Assembly: GCA_963713605.1 (NCBI GenBank)
Contig: CAVQMO010000010.1
Location: 1-64,000 of the forward strand
Source of the DNA: an uncultured Nitrososphaerales archaeon
GTDB taxonomy: Archaea > Thermoproteota > Nitrososphaeria > Nitrososphaerales > Nitrososphaeraceae
DNA: 64,000 nucleotides
Direction: 5' to 3'
The notes under the pieces were generated by a model. The model was not told the origin of the DNA. It did not search any database and was given only the letters and a program-made list of their open reading frames with translations. Each line of letters starts with the position of its first letter. Position 1 is the stretch's first letter. The position numbers and the translations under genes are program-made. Shown piece by piece: positions 2,326 to 57,684 of the stretch.

Positions 2326-4175
2326 TTAAGATACGGCTATTGATGGATTACCACCAGTATGGCTTAGAGTCGACGACTGTGGTTCAAAACTAGCTCCCCC
2401 GTCGGTATTTCTTCGATATAATACCTCAGCAGCAGCTGAAAGATACCATATTATATGGACATTACTACCTGATACAGTTATCGATGGCAAGAACGATTGA
2501 AAAGATTCATTGCTTATATTTAATGTGCTACCGAAATTAACTCCACTGTTTGTACTCCTCCTATAGAGTATCTCATCATTACCTGGAGTGTTATCGAACC
2601 ATGCCACGTAGACATTAGCACCTGATACAGCTATCGATGGAAATTGTGAAATCCCAGCATTGTTGCTTAGATTGACTAAGCTACCGAAATTAACTCCACC
2701 GTCAGTACTATTCTTTTATAAAATATCTCGCTGGGGCCTGCACTGTCGTCCTGCCAAACTAGAAAGATATTACTGCCCGATGCTGCTATCGAGGGATTTG
2801 TTGAAGCACCAGATGTGTTGCTTAGATTGACTAAGCTACCGAAATTAACTCCACCGTCATTATTCTTTTATAAAATATCTCGCTTGTGCCTAGACTATTA
2901 TCAACCCATGCCACGTGGACATTATTACCTGATACGGTTATTGATGGAGCGAGCGAGCCCCCGGGGGTATTGCTTAGATTTACAGTAGGTTCAAAACTAA
3001 CTCCCCCGTCCGTGCTCCTTCTATAGAATACCTCGTCGACACCTAGATTATTATCAACCCATACAACATAGACGTTATTACCTGATATAGCTATTACTGG
3101 ATCAATTGAATTCCCGCCGTTGTTGCTTAGATTTATAGAACAACACCACAAATTTCCGCCATCTGTACTCCTTGTATAGAATATCTCTCCATTATTGAAT
3201 CCGGTAGATTCGTACCATACTACATGGACATTATTTTTAGATGCAGCTATTGAGGGAAGTAGTGACTCACCAGCGTTGTTGCTTAGATTAATGGTATAAG
3301 GATCAAAACCACCTCCATCCCTTTGATAGAATATATCATTGTTGCCTGGAGAAAAATCTTGATATACTGTGTGAACTAGATCTTCTTTTATCTTTGCCGC
3401 TGTCACTGCATCGTCAGTTATCTTCGACGCTGTTACTGCATTATTTGCTATGGCATTAGTTCCTATCTGTTTCATCGTATAAGCAGTAGATTGTGTTGGA
3501 CCATCTATTATCACATTCGCTGCATCTCTGGTGGCAACTATGACCTTCAAGTTAGAGCTAGGATTTATCGGATTGTTAATATTAGAGAATTCTAGTCTAA
3601 TCTTTGTACCCGCGGGTACATTAACAGCATTCGTTACTGTATAAGTTATTGTTTGTCCGGATTTACTTGCGAGTACCATGACCTATTCCTTCTGCTTCAT
3701 TAAAGAAAGCACTATTTGGTATTGTCGTACCTGCTGGAAATGTTACTTCTATCTTCTTTATCGCACCTGCAGAAGCTGTTAGAAATACAACATCATAAAA
3801 AGAATTAGTGTTTACAATATTGTTTGTTGGTCTTGCAGATACTGAACCAAGTGTCGCCTGAGTAGTGAAATCTTTATTATTGTTGGCGCTATCAGTAGGT
3901 GCTATAGAAGATGGAGCAGCAGTTGTAGGTGTGGGCGAAGGTGACGATGAGGGGATATCTGAGACAGGTATATTGGCATGATAACCACTTGAATCACCTT
4001 GCAGTTGTGCAACTACATCCGCTACTAATGCCATCTCTTTATTCTGGATACCAGAAATAATGGCTGGATAAACACTGGATGATATTATTAGAAACATTGG
4101 TACAAGCATCAGTGTAAAGGGTGAGTGACTAGAGTAAATTCTTCCTATTCTCGTGATTCTAAATGGGTTGGACAA
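2326..4175 (-). CDS. Surface protein, family member A: conserved middle domain plus BNR/Asp-box (sialidase-like propeller) repeats; frameshifted
   Basis: ORFs 3663..4175, 2831..3679 and 2326..2607 join; N-terminal hydrophobic segment; repeated RSTDGGxxF...NLSN motifs. Confidence 0.75.
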
Positions 4176-39163: not shown

Positions 39164-39680
39164 TTACTTTATCTTTGATCTCTTGATCTTTTCCTGCAGT
39201 AACATAGTCCCCTGTATCAATGTTTCAGGACGTGGAGGGCAGCCAGGGACATATACATCGACTGGAATGATTCCATCTACACCTGGTAGTACATTATAAG
39301 AATCTATGTATAAGCCACCCGTGATAGCACACGCACCCATTGCTATAACATATTTAGGCTCAGGCATTTGATCATACACCATCCGTAATCTAGGTGCCAT
39401 CTTTCTTGTCACAGTTCCCTGTACTACTATCAAGTCACATTGTCTAAGTGAGCCAAAAGCTTCAATAATGCCAAATCTTTCAACGTCATATCTTGGACCT
39501 GAAGCGAGCTCCAAATTCAACACTGCAACAGGCCGTCTCCAAATGGACTGGCCAGAGGGACCACACTCTACCCCAATTTATAGCGTACCCCAATGGTTTG
39601 TCGATAGCCTTCACTAGCACGTCTCCAAGTCGGCTTACCATGAGATTAAAGTTAGAAGGGTTGAGCAGTTCCGTTTTCAT
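39164..39680 (-). CDS. nuoB: NADH-quinone oxidoreductase subunit B; one frameshift
   Basis: [37 protein letters not shown]. Confidence 0.9.
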
Positions 39681-40270
39681 ATGGGCTATAATATCACTTT
39701 CTTCCAGTACAATTACTCAGGAATCATATTTAATAATTGAGGTCTCATATCATACTTTCAGTGTTAGCTATCTCTCTTCCCTGAAAAAAATAGACCTGTA
39801 TTTGAACTAAGTATGCGGGGAGTATATCAATTTCATATAGGATATGTCTATCCTTGTTGTAAATGTCCTCTTCTAACTAACAGTTGCTTCCTCCCGCCTA
39901 CCTTTTGTTAAATTACACGTTTAAGACACGGCAAAGTGAGCGTGGCTTCTGTCGTTTTTTTTTGAAAATTTGTTTTGAAAAATAATAGTTTCAGTTTTCG
40001 CACACTCTTTTCCTAGTGTGTGGATGGGATTTATGAATAGTCCTTATGATATTGAGAAAAGATAAACAAGTAAGATTGTGAAACGGAAAGGGGGATCTCA
40101 GAGTCTGGACTAGATAGGGCCCTCAATTTTTCCTGAATCAATTCTATCAAATGTTGATATAGTGAAGAAGATTTCTGAATTGGAAAGCAGAGTTTCAGCA
40201 TTGGAGAACGCTACCAAATAGAATAGGCTAATCAGTAGATAGGATCCTCCACTAACTTTTTTTTACATGA

Positions 40271-41003: not shown

Positions 41004-41386
41004 TCATGGTAAAAATCGTGGAAGATTTAGCGATTTATCTACGATACCTGCCCATCTTAGGATTTCAGTAGGAGTCGGTTCCAATTTTCGCTGTCTGTAG
41101 TAATCTCTGAACGAGTCCCATAGGTGAGAAGCTTTATAGAGATGGTCTTTTGTATAAAGCCCCTGCAAATTGGCAAGACGATTAGGATCTGCCAATGGAA
41201 ACTTCTTCCTCCACTCTAGAGGTATTCTATGATGTACCTCGATAATTTTTCCTTTCAATCTAGGATAGGCTTTGAAAAAGATTCCCCGTGCCTCCCGTCT
41301 CAAAGCATCGCCGGACCACGCATATTTTGGAGTTAAACTCTCGTTTCAGCTAAAAAATACTCAGACAGAAATCGCCCCGTACTCAT
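41004..41386 (-). CDS. Small basic HNH-like nuclease-fold protein
   Basis: IEVHHRIPL...NRLANLQGL...H; probable ATG at 41386 with an indel before the track ORF. Confidence 0.6.
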
Positions 41387-42341
41387 GATTTGTGTTTGTA
41401 AAATCTAGTATTTCAATTAATTGGTTCTATGCCAGGTAGTTATCCAAAATTTTGAGGTACCGAAAAAATCCTTTATATATGCCTCTAGAAATAACTCAAA
41501 ATAGTTCTGTTCTTTCTTACAGTAATTACTAATTAAATATCATATCCGAAATTACTTAAAAATTTGATGGGACAAATTGAAAAGTGATTTTCTCTGGTTA
41601 ACCTGCTAAACTGATGTGTTATTGAAGTCAGGCTGATTGATGACGTATATTCCGAGGTACTTTTTAATATATTGAAGTACTCATAGTAAATGGCTGATCG
41701 ATTGATCGCTCTTATTAAACTTTTTATGATACTATTCATTACAAATATACCCTTTTTAGATGCTTAGCCATAGATAAGTTGTTTTTAAACATACTACACT
41801 ACCCTTTTCTTAAGATCCTTTGGAAAGGAAGGTCTTTCGTTTATATAAATATAGAAGGAAATCTAGAAATTCACTATTACCACTATCGGAGTGGTCTGTC
41901 TTGAAAAATTTTACTGCAATCACAAATCTGAAGAAAATATCACTCTTAACAGTTATTGTTTTGTAACCTTTGCGGGGCAATCATTTATTCATCCCTCTGC
42001 GTAGTAATAGACGTTTTTGGTTACATTATGAAATATCCTGATGAAACCGAAATAACTTTGTGAATGCTAAGAAATCAGAATAAGATGTTATATGCTCTGG
42101 TATGAAATTTGCTAATCAACCCTAAAAGGGGAGAAATAAGGTAATAGATCTCCACATATAGATTTATATGCCATTATTTTACCAATCCGACTCAAAAGCT
42201 TTATCTTTTGTCCCGTACATCAAAAATGGCATGTGGTCACGATTGAAGAAACAAATGAGGTGTCATGGATAAATATCTGAGATAATTTCATGCACGGCCT
42301 CATTATCTGGAATCATTGATGACTTAGAGGTAAGCAGGATC

Positions 42342-43161
42342 ATGCACCCTAAGGAACAACTTCGTACAGATATGCATCAAATACCAGAACTTGCATCTTC
42401 AATAAGACAAAAGGGCCTATTACAACCCATCATAGTACCAATAAAAGACGACCACTTCGAAATTGTGGCAGGTAATCGAAGATATGAGGCTTGTAAAAGC
42501 CTAGGTTGGAGAAAGATCACGTGTCATATTGAAGAGCTTGATGATAGAGAAGCGTTCGAAATAGCCTTGATGGAAAATATTCAAAGAAGTACATTGAATC
42601 CTGTGGATGAGGCAAAGGCTTTTCAGTCTTACGTTTCCAACTTCGGCTGGGGCGGAGTAACAGACTTAGCTTCAAAAATAGGAAAAAGCGTCAGTTATGT
42701 GACCAAGCGAATAGCATTATTGACGCTTCCTCCGGATGTCATTAGTTCAATTCGCGAATATGCAATGTCAAGCGAGCATGGGGGAAGAATTATGTTCTGT
42801 AAAAGACAATAACACACGATCAGAACTTGCATTTTTGATATCTAGGAGACATCTATCAGTAAGAAAAGTCAGACAAATAGTAGAAGATTTAGAAAAGGAT
42901 GTTAAACATAGTTCTAATTTCACCCTTTCAAAAAGTGATGACAAGCACAATAGCCAAACCCAAAGATCCCTTGATAAATCCATAATAGTACTACGAATTG
43001 CGTTAAATAGAATTGCAATGATTATAGAAGATGTTAAGGATGATTATTGGGTAACGGGTGAAATTTTATTGCAACACAAGAATGTGCTGCATGGTCAGAT
43101 AGATATTCTTATGAAAGAAAGGAGAAAGACGAATGAAAGACTAGAGAGAATACTAAGGTAA
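42342..43161 (+). CDS. parB: ParB/Spo0J-family protein; one frameshift
   Basis: GLLQPIIV, EIVAGNRRYEA, ENIQRSTLNP and HTH LASKIGKSVSYVTKR. Confidence 0.85.
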
Positions 43162-43479: not shown

Positions 43480-46400
43480 ATGGCAATTAATGATGCCAAT
43501 CGATTTCAGAGTCCCATGGCATTCGGGGGAAACCCTGAAATGGAAAACATGACCAGCTTACAGACAGCAGGCGAATATCAGAATCCAACAGAATATTTTG
43601 CTCCTAGTATGGAAGCAGAACAAGAATTGGAACAGGAAGCAGAACAAGAATTGGAACAGGAAGCAGAACATGAGGGTGAGGGGGAAGTTAGCGAATCTGA
43701 GCTCGAGAGAGAACTTTTCCTTAATGAGCTGCGGGACAGCGATTTTGAAAGCATGACGTCTGAAATGCTTCTTGAAGTGGAGGCAAATTTTGAAGGATAT
43801 GCTAATCAACATGGTGTAATTGGAGAACGTGAATCTATGATGAATCATCCAAATTTTGAAAATGTTGTTAACGAGTACTTTCAGACATCGATAGGTCCTA
43901 TGGTGCCAAAGATTCAAGCAGAGCTTGATTCCTTTTCAAATTATATTCAGAATAACGTTCCTATAGGCGCAGAGTACCATGTTCTAAAGCAAGTCACAGA
44001 TTCGTACCAGCCTATACATTCGGAGGACTTCATAAAAAGACTTGCAAAAAGAGTCGTTAAAGGTGTCAAAGGTTTTGCAAAGAGAGGATTAAAAGTAATC
44101 AGAAAGGTGGCAAAAGGGGTTGCTAAATTTGGAAAATTCCTAATTACAGGTCCGCTACGAATTGCCATTAGACGCTTTATCGGCTGGATACGTGCAAATA
44201 TTGGACGAATTTTACGCTCCCTAGTGAGAAAGGCTATTATGAGGTTACCGCCGCTTGCCAGGCCTATTGTAAGAAAGGCTCTTAAACGGTTAGGACTGGC
44301 AGAATCAGAACATGAAGACTTTGTCACCGAGTCTGACGTGAGGTCTACTGAAATGATCGCGGAATTGGAAACAGAATCAGAAGAAGAGCTTGAGGGGATG
44401 CAAGCTGAAAACTTAATTCCTGAATTTCAAACAGAGAGTATGATTTCTGAGGCCGAACTTGACTATGAAGATGAGACTTTACACGAAAGTGAGACACAAG
44501 TTGCAGAATTATTGCAAGAATTTGATACAGAGCTATTCAATTTTGGCGAGGTTGAATTAAGTCATGTAGCTGAAGCAGAAGCATCGCAGCCATACTCTCC
44601 AGAAGCATCGCAGCCATACTCTCCAGAAGCATCGCAGCCATACTCTCCAGAAGCATACTCTCCAGAAGCATCGCAGCCATACTCTCCAGAAGCATACTCT
44701 CCAGAAGCATCGGCAGCCAGAAGCATACTCTCCAGAAGCATCGCAGCCAGAAGCATACTCTCCAGAAGCATCGCAGCCAGAAGCATACTCTCCAGAAGCA
44801 TGGCAGAAGCATACTCTCCAGAAGCATCACCAGAAGCATACTCTCCAGAAGCATCGAGCCAGAAGCATACTCTCCAGAAGCATCTCAGCCAGAAGCATAC
44901 TCTCCAGAAGCATCGCAGACCATACTCTCCAGAAGCATACTCTCCAGAAGCATACTCTCCAGAAGCATCGCAGCCATACTCTCCAGAAGCATCGCAGCCA
45001 GAAGCATACTCTCCAGAAGCATCGCAGCCAGAAGCATACTCTCCAGAAGCATCGCCAGCCATACTCTCCAGAAGCATACTCTCCAGAAGCATACTCTCCA
45101 GAAGCATCGCAGCCATACTCTCCAGAAGCATCGCAGCCAGAAGCATACTCTCCAGAAGCATCGCAGCCATACTCTCCAGAAGCATCGCAGCCAGAAGCAT
45201 ACTCTCCAGAAGCATCGCAGCCAGAAGCATACTCTCCAGAAGCATCGCAGCCATACTCTCCTGAATACGAAACTGAGCGGATGGCAGGACCAGACACTAG
45301 AATGGTCAGTCAAGCTTATGAAAAATTCGTGAACGCAGTAGCTGTTAATCCATCTAGTTTTCATCAAGAATTGGAGCAATTTGCTCCATTAGCTCTGCAA
45401 GGCGTAAGGATCGCCTTCAAAGCAATTCCACCGCTGAGAAATTCTGTAGTAACGTCTTATTGCCAAATTATTAGAAAAATTACTAGGAAGATGGATTCCA
45501 AAACAGTACGGAAGCGTAGTTTACCGACCATTGGCAAGTTTACTGTTAAAACTAATGGGGCTAGAAGCATCTGCTAATCCAGCATTACAAAATAGAGTCT
45601 TTGCGGAAGCAATTGCTAATACAGCTACAGAAGCATTGGTGAGCGCAGCTACATTGCCTCAATCAATACTAGAAAGCAATCAACAACTTTTGGAAAGCGA
45701 ACTTGAATCATTAGTACAACAAGCCGGTACTTAATAATATCCCTGGAGAAGCACTGGGAGAATCATTTACCCCATTGCGTAGAATAAGAGGACCAATCCA
45801 TTTTATTTCTAAAGGAAAATATCAATATTTGAATAGACCGATAAGGGTAAGGCTTAACCCAGCACAGATTAATACAATAAGAATTAGGGGAGCTGCATCC
45901 TTTAGCGATTTCTTAAGGAGACAATACAGATGGAATGGTAGGACAGCTCTTACAATTGAAATCCTACTCTTTAGGACTAGCCCAGTACGTGGAAAAATGT
46001 CAGATATATTAAGAGCTTATTTTGGCCGTGGACAGCGTATTCGACTCACTCCATTTCACTTTAGACAACTTCATCCTATGACTGGGAGTGCTTCAAGAAT
46101 ATTCAAATTGCATACCATTTGGTCACGGCCCATTCCCACGTACTACTTGGTGAACAAAATATTACCGGCTACAGGAGGTATAGTTGCATTCCCATCAACA
46201 GCATCAACTAGGGAAACTCCTCAGCGAAGTAACAATGCTAGTATAAAGATAGATACTTTGGGAAGATTAAGAGCATCAGTGGACCCTAAACAATCAAACA
46301 ATAAAAACACTAAGAGCCCTAGGACCAAACATAAGGAAAGGGCTAAAACCACTCCTGAATCGTATCGTCTCATCAGCACGAAGATGGATAACTAACTTGC

Positions 46401-46684
46401 TGACAAGATTAAGGATTCCGATGCGGATTGCCAAGGCTTTGGCCGGGCTATTAGTTAGAATGGCCTTAGGATATTTTAGGCGTGCTGAAACAAACATCAT
46501 ACGCAAAATAAATACACTACTTAACAGAAGAGGCGGTGTAACTATTTCCCTTATTGTCAAGTTGCCAACGAATATCGTGAGAACTCTAATTAGAGCTCGA
46601 CCGGGAAGATTGATATTCTTAATTCGATCTCTGGTCAGAAGAGTGTCATTTTCAGTAGCCGTAACCGCTGGTTATAATATGTGA
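43480..46684 (+). CDS. Large (~1050 aa if frame-corrected) protein with alternating Glu-rich and cationic amphipathic blocks and YSPEA/SQPEA repeats
   Basis: The repeat frame runs ...QPYSPEYETERMAGP into ORF 45281; ORFs 45531, 45775 and 46397 follow through single indels. Confidence 0.65.
44575..45262 (+). repeat. Coding tandem array of 15/24-bp units (GAAGCATACTCTCCA, GAAGCATCGCAGCCA)
   Basis: About 690 bp of near-identical units encoding EAYSP, EASQP and YSP. Confidence 0.95.
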
Positions 46685-46691
46685 ACTCATA

Positions 46692-48027
46692 ATGTCTAGA
46701 CTCCTCACTTACCCCTTAAGTCAATTTGACAGAACTAATACAATTGATAGTTCAAATGCTATTTTTATAATAAGGAACGCTATTGCTGGCTTGAGTTTCG
46801 CGGTAGAGAATCTGGTAAATCCAATATCCAGAATATCAGAAGAAGCAAGACGTCAACTCACTTTTCAGCAAAGCGTAGCTATCGAAAATTCTTTCTCTAT
46901 AAGAACATTCTACTTGAAGAGAGAATTGGCAAAAGTCAAAGAACTGATCGCTCGACCACATGATATTCTAGCGAATAAGGATAGAGTTAGATATCACCTT
47001 GAACGACTCCGGAACGAATACTTGAAAAGCGAAATGGTGTTTGGCTATTATATCGATCTTCTAAATACTCGTGGGATGGCGGGAATGGGCGGCTCCCTTC
47101 GCGGATACGATTATCTTTCCATGCTAACTCTAAAGATATTTCTGGGCCCGCTAAGACACAGAATACCAACTGTTGTGGTTTATCTTGAGCAAATAGGTGA
47201 TGGAGCTGCCAATTATGCGCGCAGACATTTCTCTTTGGGACAGACTAAGAAACCCATGTGCCATCATAAAGGTCCCACAAAATAGTATCAATACTCCAAG
47301 ATCGTCAATATTTCATGAAGCTGGACATCAAATAGGAAGTATAACTGGATTAAACAAGGAGGGCGCGAATCTACTCTATAATACTGTCAGAGCTGCTGGA
47401 GGCTCATCTTCACTTGCTGAATACTACAGGCTCTGTGCAACGGAGATAGTTGCAGACCAGGTTGCAACACAACTGACAAATTGGATAGGCGCAATTACGC
47501 TATATAATATTTATTCAGGTTCTTCCGGAAGCTCTCTGGGAAGAGCGGCTCGCATGTTTATGGTGATTCCGGGCGATCCTCATCTCATGGGGTATTTGAG
47601 AATCAGAAGCAGTATCGAATCATGTCGCCTTGCACTTGGCCGAGGACCTTGGGATCAGATGGAACGTGTATTGGAAATTCTTTATCCAATATCGTTAGCG
47701 CCTCCAGAATCAGCACGGCTCATAAGGGAATCATTACCAATACTTCCAATAATTTGCAGAGCGCTTGCAAGAACAAAATTGACATCCTTCAGAGGGAAGT
47801 GTTTTGAAGACATGTTTCCTATGAGACTATGTTCATTGAATGCTGTCAAAAGGGTTTTAAACATCGACTTGTCAAACTTCTCTGTGTCTATGAGTGGGAT
47901 GATTAAAAATCCAATTTTGACGACAGTCGCATTTGGCACTTTGCAAATGCTTGGTGGAAAATCGCTTTACTGGATAACAGAACAGATGCGTCTATGGCTG
48001 GAGCAACTAGGAAGGAGGGTGCAATAA
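46692..48027 (+). CDS. Putative HExxH zinc metallopeptidase (gluzincin-like); one frameshift near 47210
   Basis: IFHEAGHQIG with downstream EIVAD (ExxAD); GDGAAIMRA across the indel. Confidence 0.7.
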
Positions 48028-48033
48028 TCTAGA

Positions 48034-50508
48034 ATGAGTATGACTTATGCACCTTCTGATTTATCGACTATGGACAAGGATATCACAATCCAGCAAGGAA
48101 GAATCACTATGTTGCAATTCGCTCCGTAGATATGCTAATTGCAAAGACTTACGAATCAATCGTTGAGAGACTTAATAGCAGAATAAACAATATAAACAAT
48201 GTCCCATTCAATGACGTCGGTCCTTTCAACAATCCTTATGAATTTACGATTCAGCAGCTGGCTCCATTGGACCAAGAAGTAACTAAGGATTGGGAGGTGA
48301 TTACAAACGGAGGACCTAGTTCTGATGGTGGTAGTTTGAGTAAGCGAATTAAGGATGCTGAAACACATATTTTGACAGGATCAAAAGACTATATTTATAA
48401 TGCCCTCTTTTTCATGGAGACCATCGACGTATTCAAAATATACAAAATTTCACTTACTATTCAGAAAATGCTTTCACATGTAATACCAAATATAAGAAAG
48501 CTACATGATTTCAGGGTAGAGCCAGACACTATAGCACTCCAGCGTTCAAACAATTTATACGGAACAGAAAATCAAGCAGATAGCGAATCCTTAGAATACT
48601 TTGTAAGCTCGACTGAGCAACTCATTGCCGAGGCATTGGCAAACGCTAATCCCGGAATGTCAATAGGTGAACGTGTAATGGAGGTTATGATCGAACTTGT
48701 ACAACGCGCAGGATATTTGGTAAAAAATTATGTAGAAAAATTTGGATCTGAATCAGAAAATAATGTTCTCCAGGAACAAAGGGAAAAGAGAATAGCCAGG
48801 GTCTTATTTCCACCGCATGACCTAGATGATGACATTAATGAAGACGTGAGACATTATCTACTCTCAGTCCTTCTGGACGACTTAGGTTTTACGTTTCTTT
48901 ATGATTTATTCGACAGAGATCTTCCTCCTCTTGTTTTCGACGTAGAAGATTCGGAAATACTAAGTAGTCCAATTAGTTTATGGGGCCCAATTTTCGTGGA
49001 TAGCGATCCCGAGTTATTTGATATTCTGACTGGTCTAATACCAACAGTGCTCGATAGGTACAGACTTCCGCACCAATCATTATCTGAAGCTCAGCATGAC
49101 TTGTGGCCTGGGGCAGTTACAGTTATGGAAGATTTCCTCAAAAGGACTTTCTTGCGTAGCCGTACTGATGAAATAGAATACTTGGTTAACAATTCTTCAG
49201 CAGATCAATGTCTTTGGACTCTGAGAAATCTTAAGAGTACTTGTCGACAATGATACCGGGATTACAACTCCAGCCGGTCCAATGGATGCAGCTAGTATCT
49301 GGAAAGCAACAAACGATTCAACTTATCGCATTCCATTTAACTTTATGATGAATTGGCTCCTAAGCGAAGAAAAGGAACTAGGGGAGCCTTTTAGATATGC
49401 ATTAATTTTACTTACGAAATCAGATAAAGTCGCGATCTTTGGCAGCGAGGCAAATGTTAGACAGGATCGTACCTCCAGCAATGTTTCCAGGTTCTTTGGA
49501 ATCATCGCAGTTACTTCCGAAGGGAGGAACACTAATTGATCTAAACTATAATAGGGAACAAAAAAACAAACAAATTTTGCTGACACGGCTAGGACGGCCT
49601 AAAGGACTAGAGTCCGCTCTTTCAAAGGTGAGAATGCCATGAATGCCATGAATACTATGAATTCGTCAATCGATATACGTGTTCCTGGAAACAAGCGTCA
49701 TCCGATATGGCTTTACTATATAGAGAGAACGAATATAGTAAATGTTTTCAGAGCTATACTCCGATCATTTCTTATAACTGACATTGATATGAGTCTGACT
49801 CCAGTGGAGGATAAGCGCCTTTCGGATAAATTGTTAGAGACGGTAAACTATGTCTTCCCTACTGAACACTCTACGATAGCTCGTCAGTTTGGTCTAGAAC
49901 AATTGCGTTGGAATATTTACCAACGCGTTTTTGGATATGATGACCGAAGTAAGGCTTTTCCAAGATCACCTACTTCTAATAAAATATTTCACACACTCCA
50001 GGAATCAATTTTCCTGAATATCTCAAGGGCAATATGGACAAAAGAGAGTTACATTTCAAAAGATTGCTGACCCTGCTAGTCTTTCTGAAATGTTAACGAA
50101 TATGAGAGAGACATTGCTTGCTCAACAGATGAATACAGTCACCGACTCTGCGTTATATTGGGCCATTAGTTTCACGATGCTTCTACGTCTTCTTGATGAC
50201 CGAAAACTGATCAGAGAAAAACTAGGTGTGGCTGCTTAGGGAGAGATCAAATACTGATCGCTTTGGGGGCCAAATTTAAGGTTCAGGTACCACGTAATGT
50301 ACTCTACTATTTTGATCTTGCGGAGAGGATGGAGACTATGCTTTTGACAATAGAGACAACACATTGGGATATAGACAAAGCAGAAGCTTGGTATGCAAGC
50401 GAAAATTTCTGGAAACTTATTTTTAATGCGTATTATAGAGTTTGGGGAAAAGATTTCATGCAGATGGCTGTCCATTCCTTTCCAGCTGGGCAGACTATAA
50501 GACGTTAA
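48034..50508 (+). CDS. Large uncharacterised helical protein, third gene of the operon; several frameshifts
   Basis: Abutting ORFs 48132, 49282, 49439, 49639 and 50263; motifs WLYYIERT and LRWNIYQRVFG. Confidence 0.55.
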
Positions 50509-50606: not shown

Positions 50607-52013
50607 TCAGCTAACTATTCCTGATCTACGTGCAAATCGATTAATGATTTCACTAATTAACTTAGTTCCTAGATACAGTAGCTCAATTTTTGCAAACTCA
50701 TTAAATGAATGAATGTTAGAAAAAATATCGGAACAACCTATTGCAACACATGGTGCCTTAGTTGATTGGACAAGAAGGCTCATAGGACCGCTTCCAGCTG
50801 ACGATAAATTTATTATCGGATTTGAGCCAAAAATTACACGCCCAGAACTTATGACGGTCTTTACAAAGGGATCTGTAAATTTGGTTCTTGAAGGTGCAAG
50901 CCCATGTACGAATTTTACTGAAATATCCGTAAATCCTGCTCTCGATAGGTGTGTTTTCAGCCTATTAAATTGTGATTTTGGAGTCATGTCAGGGACTAGA
51001 CGAAGGTCTATTACTGCTCTAGCCGTTGATGGCAAAACGGTTTTTGCACCTTTGCCTGAATAACCAGATACAATTCCAGAGATGTTGCATGTAGGTCTTT
51101 CTGCTAACATCCTCCTTGATTCATTTCTACGTAACCAAGGTGCAAGACGGGCAAGTCTATACTTTGTTTTGAATTCCATTTCATCAAACACTGGTTGGAT
51201 TGTTGTAAAACGAAGCTCATCTGCATCTAATGAGCGAAAATCACGATACCAATCCTTCACGGTTACGGTTCCCGTTTTTTCATCCCATATAGTGCTCAAG
51301 GCCTTAACAATAGTCCAAGCAGGATTGGAAACAATAGGAGCTAGACTTGAATGTATATCAGTTGAGGGACCGCATGCAGTCAATTCAACATAAAGAAGAC
51401 CCTTCATACCCAAATTTACAATAGGTCTAAGTTGAGTATCCACATATCCAAATTCCCAAATTATTCCATCACACTTCACCTTATGTCCAAGCATTTTAAG
51501 ATAGCTTCCTAAATGTGGACTACCGATCTCTTCTTCCCCTTCAACAATGAATTTTATATTACATGGTACATCTCCAGTCACTCGCACTATCGATTCCACA
51601 GCCTTTATGCGGGCCATCAGTTCACCTTTGTCATCAGCGGATCCTCGACCAAATATTTTGTTATCAATTATATCTCCACTGAAAGGATGTCGTTCCCACC
51701 GATCAAGTGGTTCTATTGGTTGGACATCATAATGATTATAGAATAAGATAGTCCTTCCGTTTGGACTAGATTTTGATGTTATTTCACCATATACCAGCGG
51801 AGGAGGCGATTCTATGTTATTTTTATTGAAGTATAACAATTCTGATTTTATATTCGCCTTGCGCATTATATCTCGAACTAATTTCGCACACTCCTCCAGT
51901 CTCTGATTCTTGACTGAAATACTAGGAATTTGAATCAAAGATTTTAGATCGAATATTAGAGCATCAATTTCTGGCTTGTGCAAATTCGAAATGGATCTCA
52001 TTTCTTTAGACAT
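50607..52013 (-). CDS. M20 family metallopeptidase/deacylase (ArgE/DapE-like)
   Basis: YNHYDVQP, GRGSADDKG, EGEEEIGS, HSFNE. Confidence 0.9.
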   Translation of the reverse strand: MSKEMRSISNLHKPEIDALIFDLKSLIQIPSISVKNQRLEECAKLVRDIMRKANIKSELLYFNKNNIESPPPLVYGEITSKSSPNGRTILFYNHYDVQPIEPLDRWERHPFSGDIIDNKIFGRGSADDKGELMARIKAVESIVRVTGDVPCNIKFIVEGEEEIGSPHLGSYLKMLGHKVKCDGIIWEFGYVDTQLRPIVNLGMKGLLYVELTACGPSTDIHSSLAPIVSNPAWTIVKALSTIWDEKTGTVTVKDWYRDFRSLDADELRFTTIQPVFDEMEFKTKYRLARLAPWLRRNESRRMLAERPTCNISGIVSGYSGKGAKTVLPSTARAVIDLRLVPDMTPKSQFNRLKTHLSRAGFTDISVKFVHGLAPSRTKFTDPFVKTVISSGRVIFGSNPIINLSSAGSGPMSLLVQSTKAPCVAIGCSDIFSNIHSFNEFAKIELLYLGTKLISEIINRFARRSGIVS

Positions 52014-52519: not shown

Positions 52520-53020
52520 TTAACATTTGCGCGCCCGGTCAGGAATGCTGTCCCGACGGTAAGTGTGCTGCACCCGGTCAATGTTGTGGCGTTGGTTCGT
52601 GTCCCCATCTTACTTTTGTTGTAAGGATCAGAACTGTTGTTCTCCAGGTGACACATGTTGTAATGACGGGACATGCTCAAAACCAGGTGAGCCCTGTTGC
52701 GGTTTTGGCAACTGTCTATCAGGGCAGAAATGTTGTCCTGATGGGAAATGTGTTGATCCGGGTGATTGTTGCAGCGACTCAGATTGTCCATCAGGTAAGC
52801 AGTGCTGTGACGGTAAATATATTCCTGCGAGTGCGTGTTGCTATGATTTTGATTGTTCACCAGGTACGCACTGCTGTAATGGTAAATGTGATGATGTTGC
52901 AGAAACGCACATTGTTCAACAGGTAAGAAATGTTGTAATGTTAAACACAACATAGCACAGCTGGTAACTCTAAACATAACATGGTCCTTAGACAATAGGG
53001 GATATTTTTATAGCTGATTA
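52520..53020 (+). CDS. Cysteine-rich repeat protein; frameshifted, boundaries uncertain
   Basis: Repeated CC-x-x-G-x-C and CPSGKQCC units. Confidence 0.55.
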
Positions 53021-53039: not shown

Positions 53040-53957
53040 ATGAGCAATAATCAAGGATCCTTTGAGGCCGAATTCAAACTAGATCCACGTCCACCGAGTG
53101 AAGGTGGACTTACCGATGAGCATTGTAAGGCAAAACTTAAACAGATACAAGATATAGGGAGGCATCGACATGAACAAGTTCGTATAGAATTCCCTACGAT
53201 AAATGATGGGAATACTAGCGCAATTTATACAGTAACTGTATTTCACGCTGATGCAGGTAGTGTAATTCTAGGGCACAAAATTCCAAACTTGAGCTGCAGA
53301 CTCACTGAGAACAAATGCATAGGCGTGGTGAAAGCTCAAATCATGCTTGAAGGTCTTGATGATGATAAGGCAGAGGAACTCGGTGAACTTGTTGAACATT
53401 TATGTCACGAAGGGCAAAATCGTAAACTCGTTGTTATTGCACCGCACGGGGGCGAAATTGAACCGTGGACTGATAAGCAGGCAAAATACGTCGGGAATCA
53501 TCTACCACATGATCGCGCATCTGTATGGTTATGTAAGGGTTTTAGTAACCCAAATCTCTCCGATGCACACGAGCGTTGGCATATCACTTCAACAGAAATT
53601 AGCGAGATATCGTTCCCTAAGCTTGGGACGATTTTTGAACCGAAGTTTGAATATGCAATTGCCTTTCATGGTTGGACTCAAGATTCCATTTGTGTCGGAG
53701 GAAACGCCGAAAGTGCGGATGCTGGTTTAATAGGGGAAATTAAGGATGCAATCAAGCAAAAGCTACAGGGTACAAATATTGACGTCGAGGATACCGCTTG
53801 TCCTGGAGGGTTTAATGGTGATGACCCATGCAATATCGTAAACCGCCTAGGAATAAAGGGTATACAAATTGAGCAATGCAAGAAAGCTCGTCGAGATCAC
53901 CATGATAAAATTGCACAGGCAGTTGTTGATGTTATCGGCTCCCGAATCAATGTCTGA
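53040..53957 (+). CDS. Poly-gamma-glutamate hydrolase family protein (PghP/YmaC-like)
   Basis: IAPHGGEIEPWT, WHITS, AFHG, NIVNR and IQIEQ motifs. Confidence 0.8.
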   Translation: MSNNQGSFEAEFKLDPRPPSEGGLTDEHCKAKLKQIQDIGRHRHEQVRIEFPTINDGNTSAIYTVTVFHADAGSVILGHKIPNLSCRLTENKCIGVVKAQIMLEGLDDDKAEELGELVEHLCHEGQNRKLVVIAPHGGEIEPWTDKQAKYVGNHLPHDRASVWLCKGFSNPNLSDAHERWHITSTEISEISFPKLGTIFEPKFEYAIAFHGWTQDSICVGGNAESADAGLIGEIKDAIKQKLQGTNIDVEDTACPGGFNGDDPCNIVNRLGIKGIQIEQCKKARRDHHDKIAQAVVDVIGSRINV

Positions 53958-56436: not shown

Positions 56437-57684
56437 TCATCTCTCTAGATTTTGCATTCTCGCTGTCAAAGCCATTAATTGGTCGGAAAGATGTGCTATG
56501 GCATCATCCTTCATCTTGTCCCTTTCTCTAAATGACTGGTTTAGTTCTTCTAGTTCTTCTATTTTGCTTTGAATATCTGCACCCTGTCTCTCTAGCTGAT
56601 GCACATTTAGAAACGTAAGATATGGTTCTATCTTTCTGAATATCTCTACCTTCTCAGAATCTTTCTTTCTCCAATATGTTGAACCCGAATGTCCTATAAA
56701 ATATTCAGAAAAATCAAAATAACCAAGATCGGATATTGTTGTCTTTACAAACCTTCTGAACGAATGAAGAGTTATTTGTCTTCTATTTTGATTGCTATCT
56801 TCTCTTTCTCCTCTACCCATTCTGTCAAGTGTTTTGGCGAAGGCTTTTGCAATGTCATCATAGATGCCATCAGGATTTGGCATTCTCTTGGTTTGGTAAA
56901 CTGCAAATACAAGATCGGTCTCTTCTCTAGAAGGCGTTCTATATTCTGTGATTGTACTTCCGTCTTTGTTATGACAAACCCTTCTTTTTCTATATTTGTA
57001 GCTTAGCCAGGACTTTAGCTGTTGTGTTACCTCATCGGTAAGAAATACAATTCTATCTGCTCTAGTTTTAGTAAATTCTCCTCGCACAAAAACATGGGCT
57101 GGTTTCGAATCTAAATCCAAATCTTTAACTCGAACAGATAATGCTTCTACTGCTCTGAATCCACCAGCCGCTAAAAACATAACATATGTCTTCAAGCGTA
57201 TATCTGAACATGCGTTTAGAATATCAATGATATCTTCCTTTGATAATGCTTCCTTATTCTTCCTAACTATTTTTGGCAATCTTACCTTTAGTTTGAATTT
57301 TCTAGGACTAATATCAATGTCTGAATATTCTAAAAAGTTCTTGATAGTAATAACATGGTTCTTTAATGAATTTGGGGCAATAGTATTGTTACTTTCTTGC
57401 TTTAGGAATAGTATGTATCCAGTAAGGAGATCGTAAGGATCTATCTTTGTCTTCTTGATTTCTGTGACAATATTTTGGATTCCAAGACCGTATCTATCAT
57501 TAGTATATTTGCCGAATTTCTTCAATCTTTCATTGTCCTTTTGAGCAGTTGATTCATTTACTACTGCTACATTAGTCAGATATCTGGATACTACAGAGTC
57601 GTCATTCTTCGAGAGCACTCGCTTGTTGGTATGAGGAGTTACTACAATAGATTCAGTTGAACCTGTTCCAGCGCTAGCTTTCAA
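56437..57684 (-). CDS. Tyrosine recombinase/integrase (int3), intact
   Basis: GGFRAVE (R), FTKT (K), LHSFRRF, IGHSGSTY; starts about 65 bp from the right direct repeat. Confidence 0.9.
   Translation of the reverse strand: MKASAGTGSTESIVVTPHTNKRVLSKNDDSVVSRYLTNVAVVNESTAQKDNERLKKFGKYTNDRYGLGIQNIVTEIKKTKIDPYDLLTGYILFLKQESNNTIAPNSLKNHVITIKNFLEYSDIDISPRKFKLKVRLPKIVRKNKEALSKEDIIDILNACSDIRLKTYVMFLAAGGFRAVEALSVRVKDLDLDSKPAHVFVRGEFTKTRADRIVFLTDEVTQQLKSWLSYKYRKRRVCHNKDGSTITEYRTPSREETDLVFAVYQTKRMPNPDGIYDDIAKAFAKTLDRMGRGEREDSNQNRRQITLHSFRRFVKTTISDLGYFDFSEYFIGHSGSTYWRKKDSEKVEIFRKIEPYLTFLNVHQLERQGADIQSKIEELEELNQSFRERDKMKDDAIAHLSDQLMALTARMQNLER

Follow-up and report, generated by a model that had tools for sequence, protein, structure and literature searches.

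Animal antimicrobial precursors combine an acidic spacer, a processing site and a cationic amphipathic helix, commonly with Phe-Leu at its start; bacterial gasdermin pairs set a dedicated protease beside a self-inhibited putative pore former; type X secretion employs a holin and a peptidoglycan hydrolase and releases signal-less proteins with a membrane-active protein; and a haloarchaeal system is said to direct against other cells a precursor activated by an extracellular serine protease. The present analysis concerns a four-gene operon, g1 to g4, of an uncultured Nitrososphaerales archaeon, located within the first 64,000 nucleotides of contig CAVQMO010000010.1 (assembly GCA_963713605.1), a stretch hereafter called the window. 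The genome (G000, the window lying on its contig C10) encodes an archaeal amoA; the host is an ammonia oxidiser. The best explanation of the operon is that it represents an archaeal member of a widespread and so far unnamed antagonism system, the function of the window's copy being less certain than that of related loci carrying cargo genes.

The likeness of the g1 protein to animal peptide precursors is one of logic: some g1 paralogues hold several units per precursor, but they are prokaryotic, have neither signal peptide nor dibasic site, and come with a dedicated putative zinc peptidase, an extra globular domain and partner genes. As in gasdermin-protease pairs, a predicted protease (g2) adjoins a putative masked membrane-active protein (g1), yet no gasdermin match was found, g1 is helical rather than a beta-barrel, g2 resembles a metallopeptidase, and a cargo gene is added. 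Unlike type X secretion, the operon has no holin with transmembrane segments, and its hydrolases are the variable, leader-tagged part, present also in wall-less archaea. The related loci, not the window's, recall classical polymorphic toxins in setting variable C-terminal effectors on a conserved N-terminal tag.

In the sections of PMC3482391 that deal with them, PVC-metallopeptidase toxins are described as an HExxHxxQ-E zincin peptidase fused to a toxin and delivered by a phage-tail syringe. The present system resembles these toxins of extracellular contractile injection systems (eCIS) in that an HExxH zincin-like protein is linked with variable toxins, many of which have no immunity gene next to them, both in free-living bacteria and in some archaea (PMC3482391); it differs in that g2 stands alone, its Glu lies about 36–38 residues past the motif, and no sheath gene recurs. 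Archaea using wall hydrolases against other cells form a further parallel: only 67 of 210 archaeal peptidoglycan hydrolases have a known signal peptide, and the main text of that report makes no mention of Nitrososphaer-, Methanosarcina or HExxH (PMC12352652). The literature searched holds no description of the system, although one in other wording or in subscription journals beyond the search could exist. In the tests run here, the marks of eCIS/PVC, of catalogued defence systems and of holins were not found.

Operon structure and protein families

The intact orthologous locus of a genome of the same genus (G004; DNA identity 81–90% per gene) consists of four open reading frames (ORFs) of 889, 444, 523 and 286 residues. 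The first-pass annotation of the window had described a three-gene operon; its tight co-directional packing stands, with gaps of 7 base pairs (bp) between g1 and g2 (stop ending at 46684, ATG at 46692) and 6 bp between g2 and g3 (48027 and 48034) as stated there, but the "large helical protein" is in fact g3 and g4, which overlap at an ATGA (49639–49642) as they do in G004. Besides the fourth gene, a repeat of about 670 bp in g1 and the leader-tagged cargo of related loci had been missed. A profile of one subtype gave 329 stretches in a species genome collection, the best 80 of which were kept as loci; wherever a locus is complete (73 of 73), g1, g2 and g4 lie in this order and share a strand, counts that include related loci and are thus not independent; the other seven of the 80 are cut by contig ends. 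The co-occurrence on which the annotation had staked its proposal is thus found elsewhere.

The precursor-like g1 runs from an acidic block through E-x-F site 1 with its cationic helices, another acidic block and the repeat to E-x-F site 2 with its amphipathic helices and an Arg-rich C-terminal domain; the repeat is tandem and error-laden in the window, and similar repeats occur in archaeal relatives. Both annotated acidic blocks (EAEQELEQEAE and ELETESEEELE) and both sites (HSEDF followed by IKRLAKRV, F at 44029; ELEQF followed by APLALQG, F at 45380) are present in the DNA. The charge alternation and the sites go beyond chance, being conserved in 73 aligned g1 proteins: site 1 keeps its E in 65/73 and its F in 64/73, site 2 has E or Q in 73/73 and F in 73/73, and the median charge is −16 upstream against +12 (site 1) and +5 (site 2) downstream. 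In G004 the block after site 1 has a net charge of +18 in 60 residues with a hydrophobic moment of 0.8 (archaeal g1: +18 or +19), and the C-terminal third, rightly annotated as Arg-rich, has net +48 with 47 Arg in 309 residues. Distant subtypes possess upstream paralogues of 250–350 residues, often two in tandem, which contain up to three units of acidic spacer, ExF and helix. Thermolysin-like enzymes typically cut before a bulky hydrophobic residue, a preference that fits a cut before the Phe of E-x-F, and the idea of a precursor with its maturase would fit the conserved sites and the multi-copy short paralogues.

In the 80 loci g2 has an ORF to itself, about 420 residues long, and is not fused N-terminally to a toxin. 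The annotated HEAGH (47314–47328) and EIVAD (47443–47457) are present in the window; HExxH is invariant in 94 g2 sequences, the downstream E and D in 68, an HP motif is invariant or nearly so, and ExxxD was found in 92/94. The gluzincin signature read by the annotation is thus firm as a motif, but the matches in fold are weak. The g2 model (predicted local distance difference test, pLDDT, 87) shows a three-helix bundle, two strands, an HExxH helix (residues 209–213 within helix 206–219) and a Glu helix (ExxxD in helix 250–263). Foldseek returned nothing from the PDB at E ≤ 0.001, a PDB sequence-profile search gave no meaningful match, and the rows of an earlier wide VIA search cover the N-terminal bundle alone. 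Among 50 VIA rows listed, the sole two that cover the catalytic region are zinc peptidases, 3zuk (Zmp1; Z 5.9, root-mean-square deviation 4.5, 175 aligned) and 3c37 (Z 5.3, deviation 4.4, 157 aligned), both weak matches that are suggestive, not decisive, of a gluzincin-type fold. Zinc binding by this predicted peptidase would follow from its motif.

Of the remaining genes, g3 (about 520 residues) is conserved in the archaeal clade, whereas the bacterial gene at its position is short, variable and poorly conserved; archaeal g3 has no detectable kinship with g4 (hhalign 0.1%). The g4 protein is conserved across phyla; at least 2058 of 8000 candidates are related to it, and among 120 relatives listed the names given are "hypothetical" save three automatic XRE labels. 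It is recognisable in subtype B by profile alignment (hhalign 93%) and weakly in a third subtype. Its model (pLDDT 93.5) had no Foldseek match at E ≤ 0.001 in the PDB or among viral models, and the best Z in a wide VIA search was 6.4, on a helical hairpin, which by itself is no proof of a new fold. Searches of PDB sequences with four profiles found no meaningful match and the ESM Atlas none at 0.9 or above; a new fold for g4 is probable. A predicted complex of g2, g4, a g1 fragment and zinc scored 0.00 with an uncertain partner fold, and counts neither way. In one archaeal metagenome locus, g4 is followed downstream by a divergent paralogue of itself (L097, 7986–8996).

The breadth of g4 across phyla and into a second subtype, together with a confident model that resembles nothing known, would suit a self-assembling particle or filament. 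In such a model g4, together with g1, would form a shell or lattice, g2 would mature it in the way of virion proteases, and cargo would be loaded by the binding of its acidic leader to the cationic g1 helices; the cargo, not free g1 peptides, would do the killing. A leader common to g1 and cargo and the lack of a transporter nearby point the same way. However, g4 had no match in a phage collection and no capsid, tail or sheath likeness was found in it, and the multi-unit short paralogues resemble peptide precursors rather than coat proteins. We consider a particle unlikely, though in part it overlaps, and is compatible, with the release system proposed below.

Leader-tagged cargo and the proposed release system

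An automatic pick yielded 61 candidate genes after g4, of which 49 were scanned for domains; the 12 dropped were six wrong-frame or unrelated ORFs, four at contig ends, one near-duplicate and one set aside for size. Wall-lytic or wall-binding domains (Amidase_2/6, M15/VanY, M23, SLT, CHAP, YkuD, lysozyme, PG_binding) occurred in 29/49, a tally including DUF2272 and VgrG3-C, which we take to be lytic; six had phospholipase D, four trypsin and nine no family, the categories overlapping, and no Pfam trafficking domain was found at the N-terminus of the 49. At their N-terminus cargo proteins have an acidic tract with one or two (E)SPF motifs, a feature shared with bacterial g1. This leader motif lies in the first 70 residues of 33/61 candidates, a figure inflated by the motif having been picked by eye from the cargo set, and of 42/74 g1, 8/432 background ORFs, 0/80 g2 and 1/76 g4; six of the background leader ORFs are also acidic; these are long, lie next to the operon and in five cases encode enzyme domains. 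With a relaxed motif, a leader ORF follows g4 in 46/69 loci (background 11/432), and 0/37 leader-bearing cargo proteins have a hydrophobic N-terminus. In five whole genomes a leader profile, partly trained on those same genomes, gave seven matches, six at the operon and one orphan, with none in one genome. The third subtype provides an M15 cargo with an ESP/ENPF leader (L141), and Methanosarcina and Methanothrix loci have SLT, M15, VanY and PG-binding cargo; since these archaea have no peptidoglycan, the target of their wall hydrolases should be another cell.

With the fourth gene and the leader-tagged cargo, the interpretation moves away from a peptide toxin acting by itself and towards a system of release or delivery. 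The most economical reading, held tentatively and somewhat short of even odds, is that the operon encodes a system which a protease activates and which releases antibacterial cargo. In it, g2 would cut g1 before the Phe of the E-x-F sites, removing the acidic blocks that would neutralise the cationic amphipathic helices, and the freed helices would attack membranes of the producer, the target or both, possibly by pore formation. The variable signal-less enzyme (cell-wall hydrolase, phospholipase D or trypsin-like protease) that most of the bacterial and methanogen loci encode, with its g1-like (E)SPF acidic leader, would be released or packaged, and so exported, in the same way; g4 (and g3) would serve as the scaffold or as the receptor for the leader. 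Leader-tagged cargo appears to have been lost in the window's lineage, which seems to rely on an unusually cationic g1.

Several observations weigh against such a release system, beginning with the non-independent locus counts and the inflated leader count given above. The Z-scores of g2 fall in the range which the tool terms "possibly a common arrangement". A hydropathy scan of the core proteins found no clear transmembrane segment (best 19-residue value 1.06–1.68 in the four G004 proteins; 17/73 g1 reach 1.8). Neither a transporter nor a downstream small family that might confer immunity recurs in the 80 neighbourhoods, where one-off immunity genes would escape, and 23/69 loci have no detected adjacent leader ORF. 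The spacing of the leader (E-S-P-F) differs from that of the g1 sites (E-x-F), and one peptidase may therefore not read both. In the window's genome neither a leader-profile match nor a leader-bearing cargo homologue (by tblastn) was found, and the profile found nothing in G004, G079, G070, G216 and G178; as two of these have cargo-like genes, it appears insensitive for archaea. The window's genome also encodes a phospholipase D-like protein that resembles one cargo domain and has no acidic leader (402142–403986 of contig C10, minus strand).

Export by this operon does not seem generally to need a contractile injection system, because 16/29 carrier genomes (many of the 29 being incomplete) have no sheath match, against 13/29 with one; the match is absent in the window's genome (87% complete) and in the single-contig G079, and no sheath or tube structural genes recur in the 80 neighbourhoods. 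In G075, of the window's family, sheath-, tube- and chaperone-like genes that look like a contractile injection system lie about 6 kb away from what is left of a broken g2 (L121, 15613–19901).

Protease, masked amphipathic protein and signal-less wall hydrolase together might also recall holin-endolysin logic, with g1, once activated by g2, forming pores in the manner of a gasdermin or holin in programmed self-lysis or abortive infection and the hydrolases digesting the cell's own wall. The patchy occurrence in cyanobacteria, myxobacteria and actinomycetes would agree with this, but the operon comes with wall hydrolases also in archaea that have no wall, PADLOC matched 0/12 proteins, and no sensor domains were found, the recurrent neighbours being regulators (upstream LuxR-type at 20 loci, sigma-54 at 7). 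Self-lysis is in our judgement improbable.

Within the window's family, cargo-like genes after g4 encode a PhoD-like protein with ETPF (L126), a trypsin (L122) and an amidase-like protein (L120; E 4e-4, below cut-off). Between g4 and the latter lies an opposite-strand ORF (2944–4068, G070) with a wall-hydrolase-like motif by eye and no Pfam match. In G079 an APOBEC/AID-like deaminase gene directly follows g4 and precedes an FGase-like gene (L119, 13588–14487), as in L088 and L092; it is possibly leaderless cargo. As for the window's own lineage, the cargo-less operon could have been repurposed, with g1, for example, set free by g2 as a polycation that binds or condenses nucleic acids. The C-terminal charge of archaeal g1 (+41 to +56, 12 sequences, versus a median of +15 and a range to +51 in the other 71), the degenerate (E)SPF leader of the window's g1 and a ParB-like gene upstream would suit this idea, yet both E-x-F sites and the helices are kept, close archaeal relatives still have cargo-like genes, and ParB-like genes number at least three copies in the genome. 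Repurposing appears to us more improbable still than self-lysis.

Distribution, integrity and surroundings

The loci kept (best 80 of 329) include ones from Bacteroidota, Acidobacteriota, cyanobacteria, myxobacteria, actinomycetes, Paenibacillus, Nitrospira, Methanosarcina and Methanothrix. A g2 search gave 43 matches among 7999 candidates, 41 at 58% identity or above (one being the window's own fragment), one homologue being labelled Nitrososphaeraceae by its source; there are 777 g2 relatives among cluster representatives at 50% identity. The system is distributed patchily, occurring in 10/238 genomes of the window's family, in 0/227 genomes searched from other families of the order and in 4/201 of a cyanobacterial sample, and metagenomes added 19 loci of archaeal type. 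Plasmid records numbered none with the archaeal query and five with a Methanosarcina g2. Neither Pfam (four G004 proteins) nor NCBIfam, including enzymes of the HExxH type associated with ribosomally synthesised and post-translationally modified peptides (4 and 14 proteins), gave a match over cut-off. In a quick, midpoint-rooted tree of 79 g2 proteins, with the direction of transfer outside its reach, the window's clade (with four unlabelled proteins, SH support 99) is sister to bacterial subtype A and three further genomes from this family branch within a different subtype; this split between two subtypes suggests that the operon was acquired twice in the family.

Single-base insertions or deletions (indels) break all four genes in this assembly, about ten in some 6.3 kb of operon outside the repeat, including an extra base near 47209 in g2. 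These frameshifts are assembly errors, since the G004 copy is intact, the extra base seen at 46284, 47209 (two runs) and 49459 is missing from short-read contigs of near-identical strains, and the ratio of non-synonymous to synonymous substitution against G004 is low, 0.02–0.17 in 7/7 segments, as under purifying selection. Short-read depth at the breaks is just 2–5.6, and only these three positions are clearly spanned. The indel density exceeds the 0.69 frame changes per kb of control genes, an excess not fully explained that would favour a decaying pseudogene cluster, but 12/26 control genes are broken too, and with the short-read contigs and the low ratios this makes decay very improbable. 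A nuoB-like housekeeping gene in the window (39164–39716, minus strand) is split over two frames, consistent with assembly indels.

The features of the operon and its flanks are collected in the table. The annotation's view of mobile cargo finds no support as a recent event: the ParB-like and M20 flanks are common to the window and G004, the G+C content matches that of the genome, and the archaeal clade has diversified. Promoter and terminator scans gave signal at chance level.

Features of the operon and its flanks (window coordinates)
Feature	Coordinates	Strand	Basis or remark
g1, precursor-like protein (889 residues in G004), frameshifted here	43480..46684	+	DNA and G004 orthologue
g1 site 1 (HSED/F) and downstream cationic amphipathic block	44017..44297	+	
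g1 tandem repeat, QPYSPEAS/YSPEA-type units	44591..45265	+	many assembly indels
g1 site 2 (ELEQ/F) and downstream amphipathic helices	45368..45570	+	
g2, HExxH...ExxxD zinc peptidase-like protein (444 residues)	46692..48027	+	N-terminal three-helix bundle
g3, acidic helical protein (523 residues in G004)	48034..49642	+	conserved among archaeal loci
g4, conserved all-helical core protein (286 residues in G004)	49639..50508	+	overlaps g3 stop
ParB-like gene, upstream flank	42273..43161	+	also frameshifted; same position in G004
M20 peptidase gene, downstream flank	50607..52013	-	occupies cargo-gene position of related loci

Upstream of the ParB-like gene, a small HNH-like ORF (41004–41345, minus strand) has an HHRIP motif and no Pfam match, and the comparable region of G004 (L003, 18988–19488) gave a weak Tox-REase-5 match (E 0.0015); the region may be a variable toxin slot. 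Downstream of the operon, the window encodes a poly-gamma-glutamate hydrolase domain (PF05908, E 1.5e-15; 53040–53957, plus strand), found here in an archaeon and lying after a Cys-rich ORF (52563–52955), and a tyrosine integrase about 6 kb from the operon (56437–57684, minus strand). In G004 a tyrosinase and its partner gene lie a few kb from the operon (L004, 7915–9204).

Significance for ammonia-oxidising archaea and beyond

We give about an even chance to the wider proposal that the operon represents an undescribed export or delivery route common to many bacterial phyla and several archaeal lineages, in which g2 would activate a multi-unit lytic precursor, g4 with its new fold would read the (E)SPF leader, and signal-less antibacterial enzymes would be released, and which ammonia-oxidising archaea would have acquired at least twice and used against bacteria. 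The families offer a set of resources: a putative peptidase family of 777 clusters at 50% identity, a probable new fold in g4 with at least 2058 proteins, and a large natural library of amphipathic peptides starting with Phe. If the proposal is true, it would add a class of toxin release systems not described before, whose address tag can be read, account for the exit of many signal-less wall hydrolases from the cell, those of wall-less archaea among them, and provide ammonia-oxidising archaea with a candidate antibacterial weapon.

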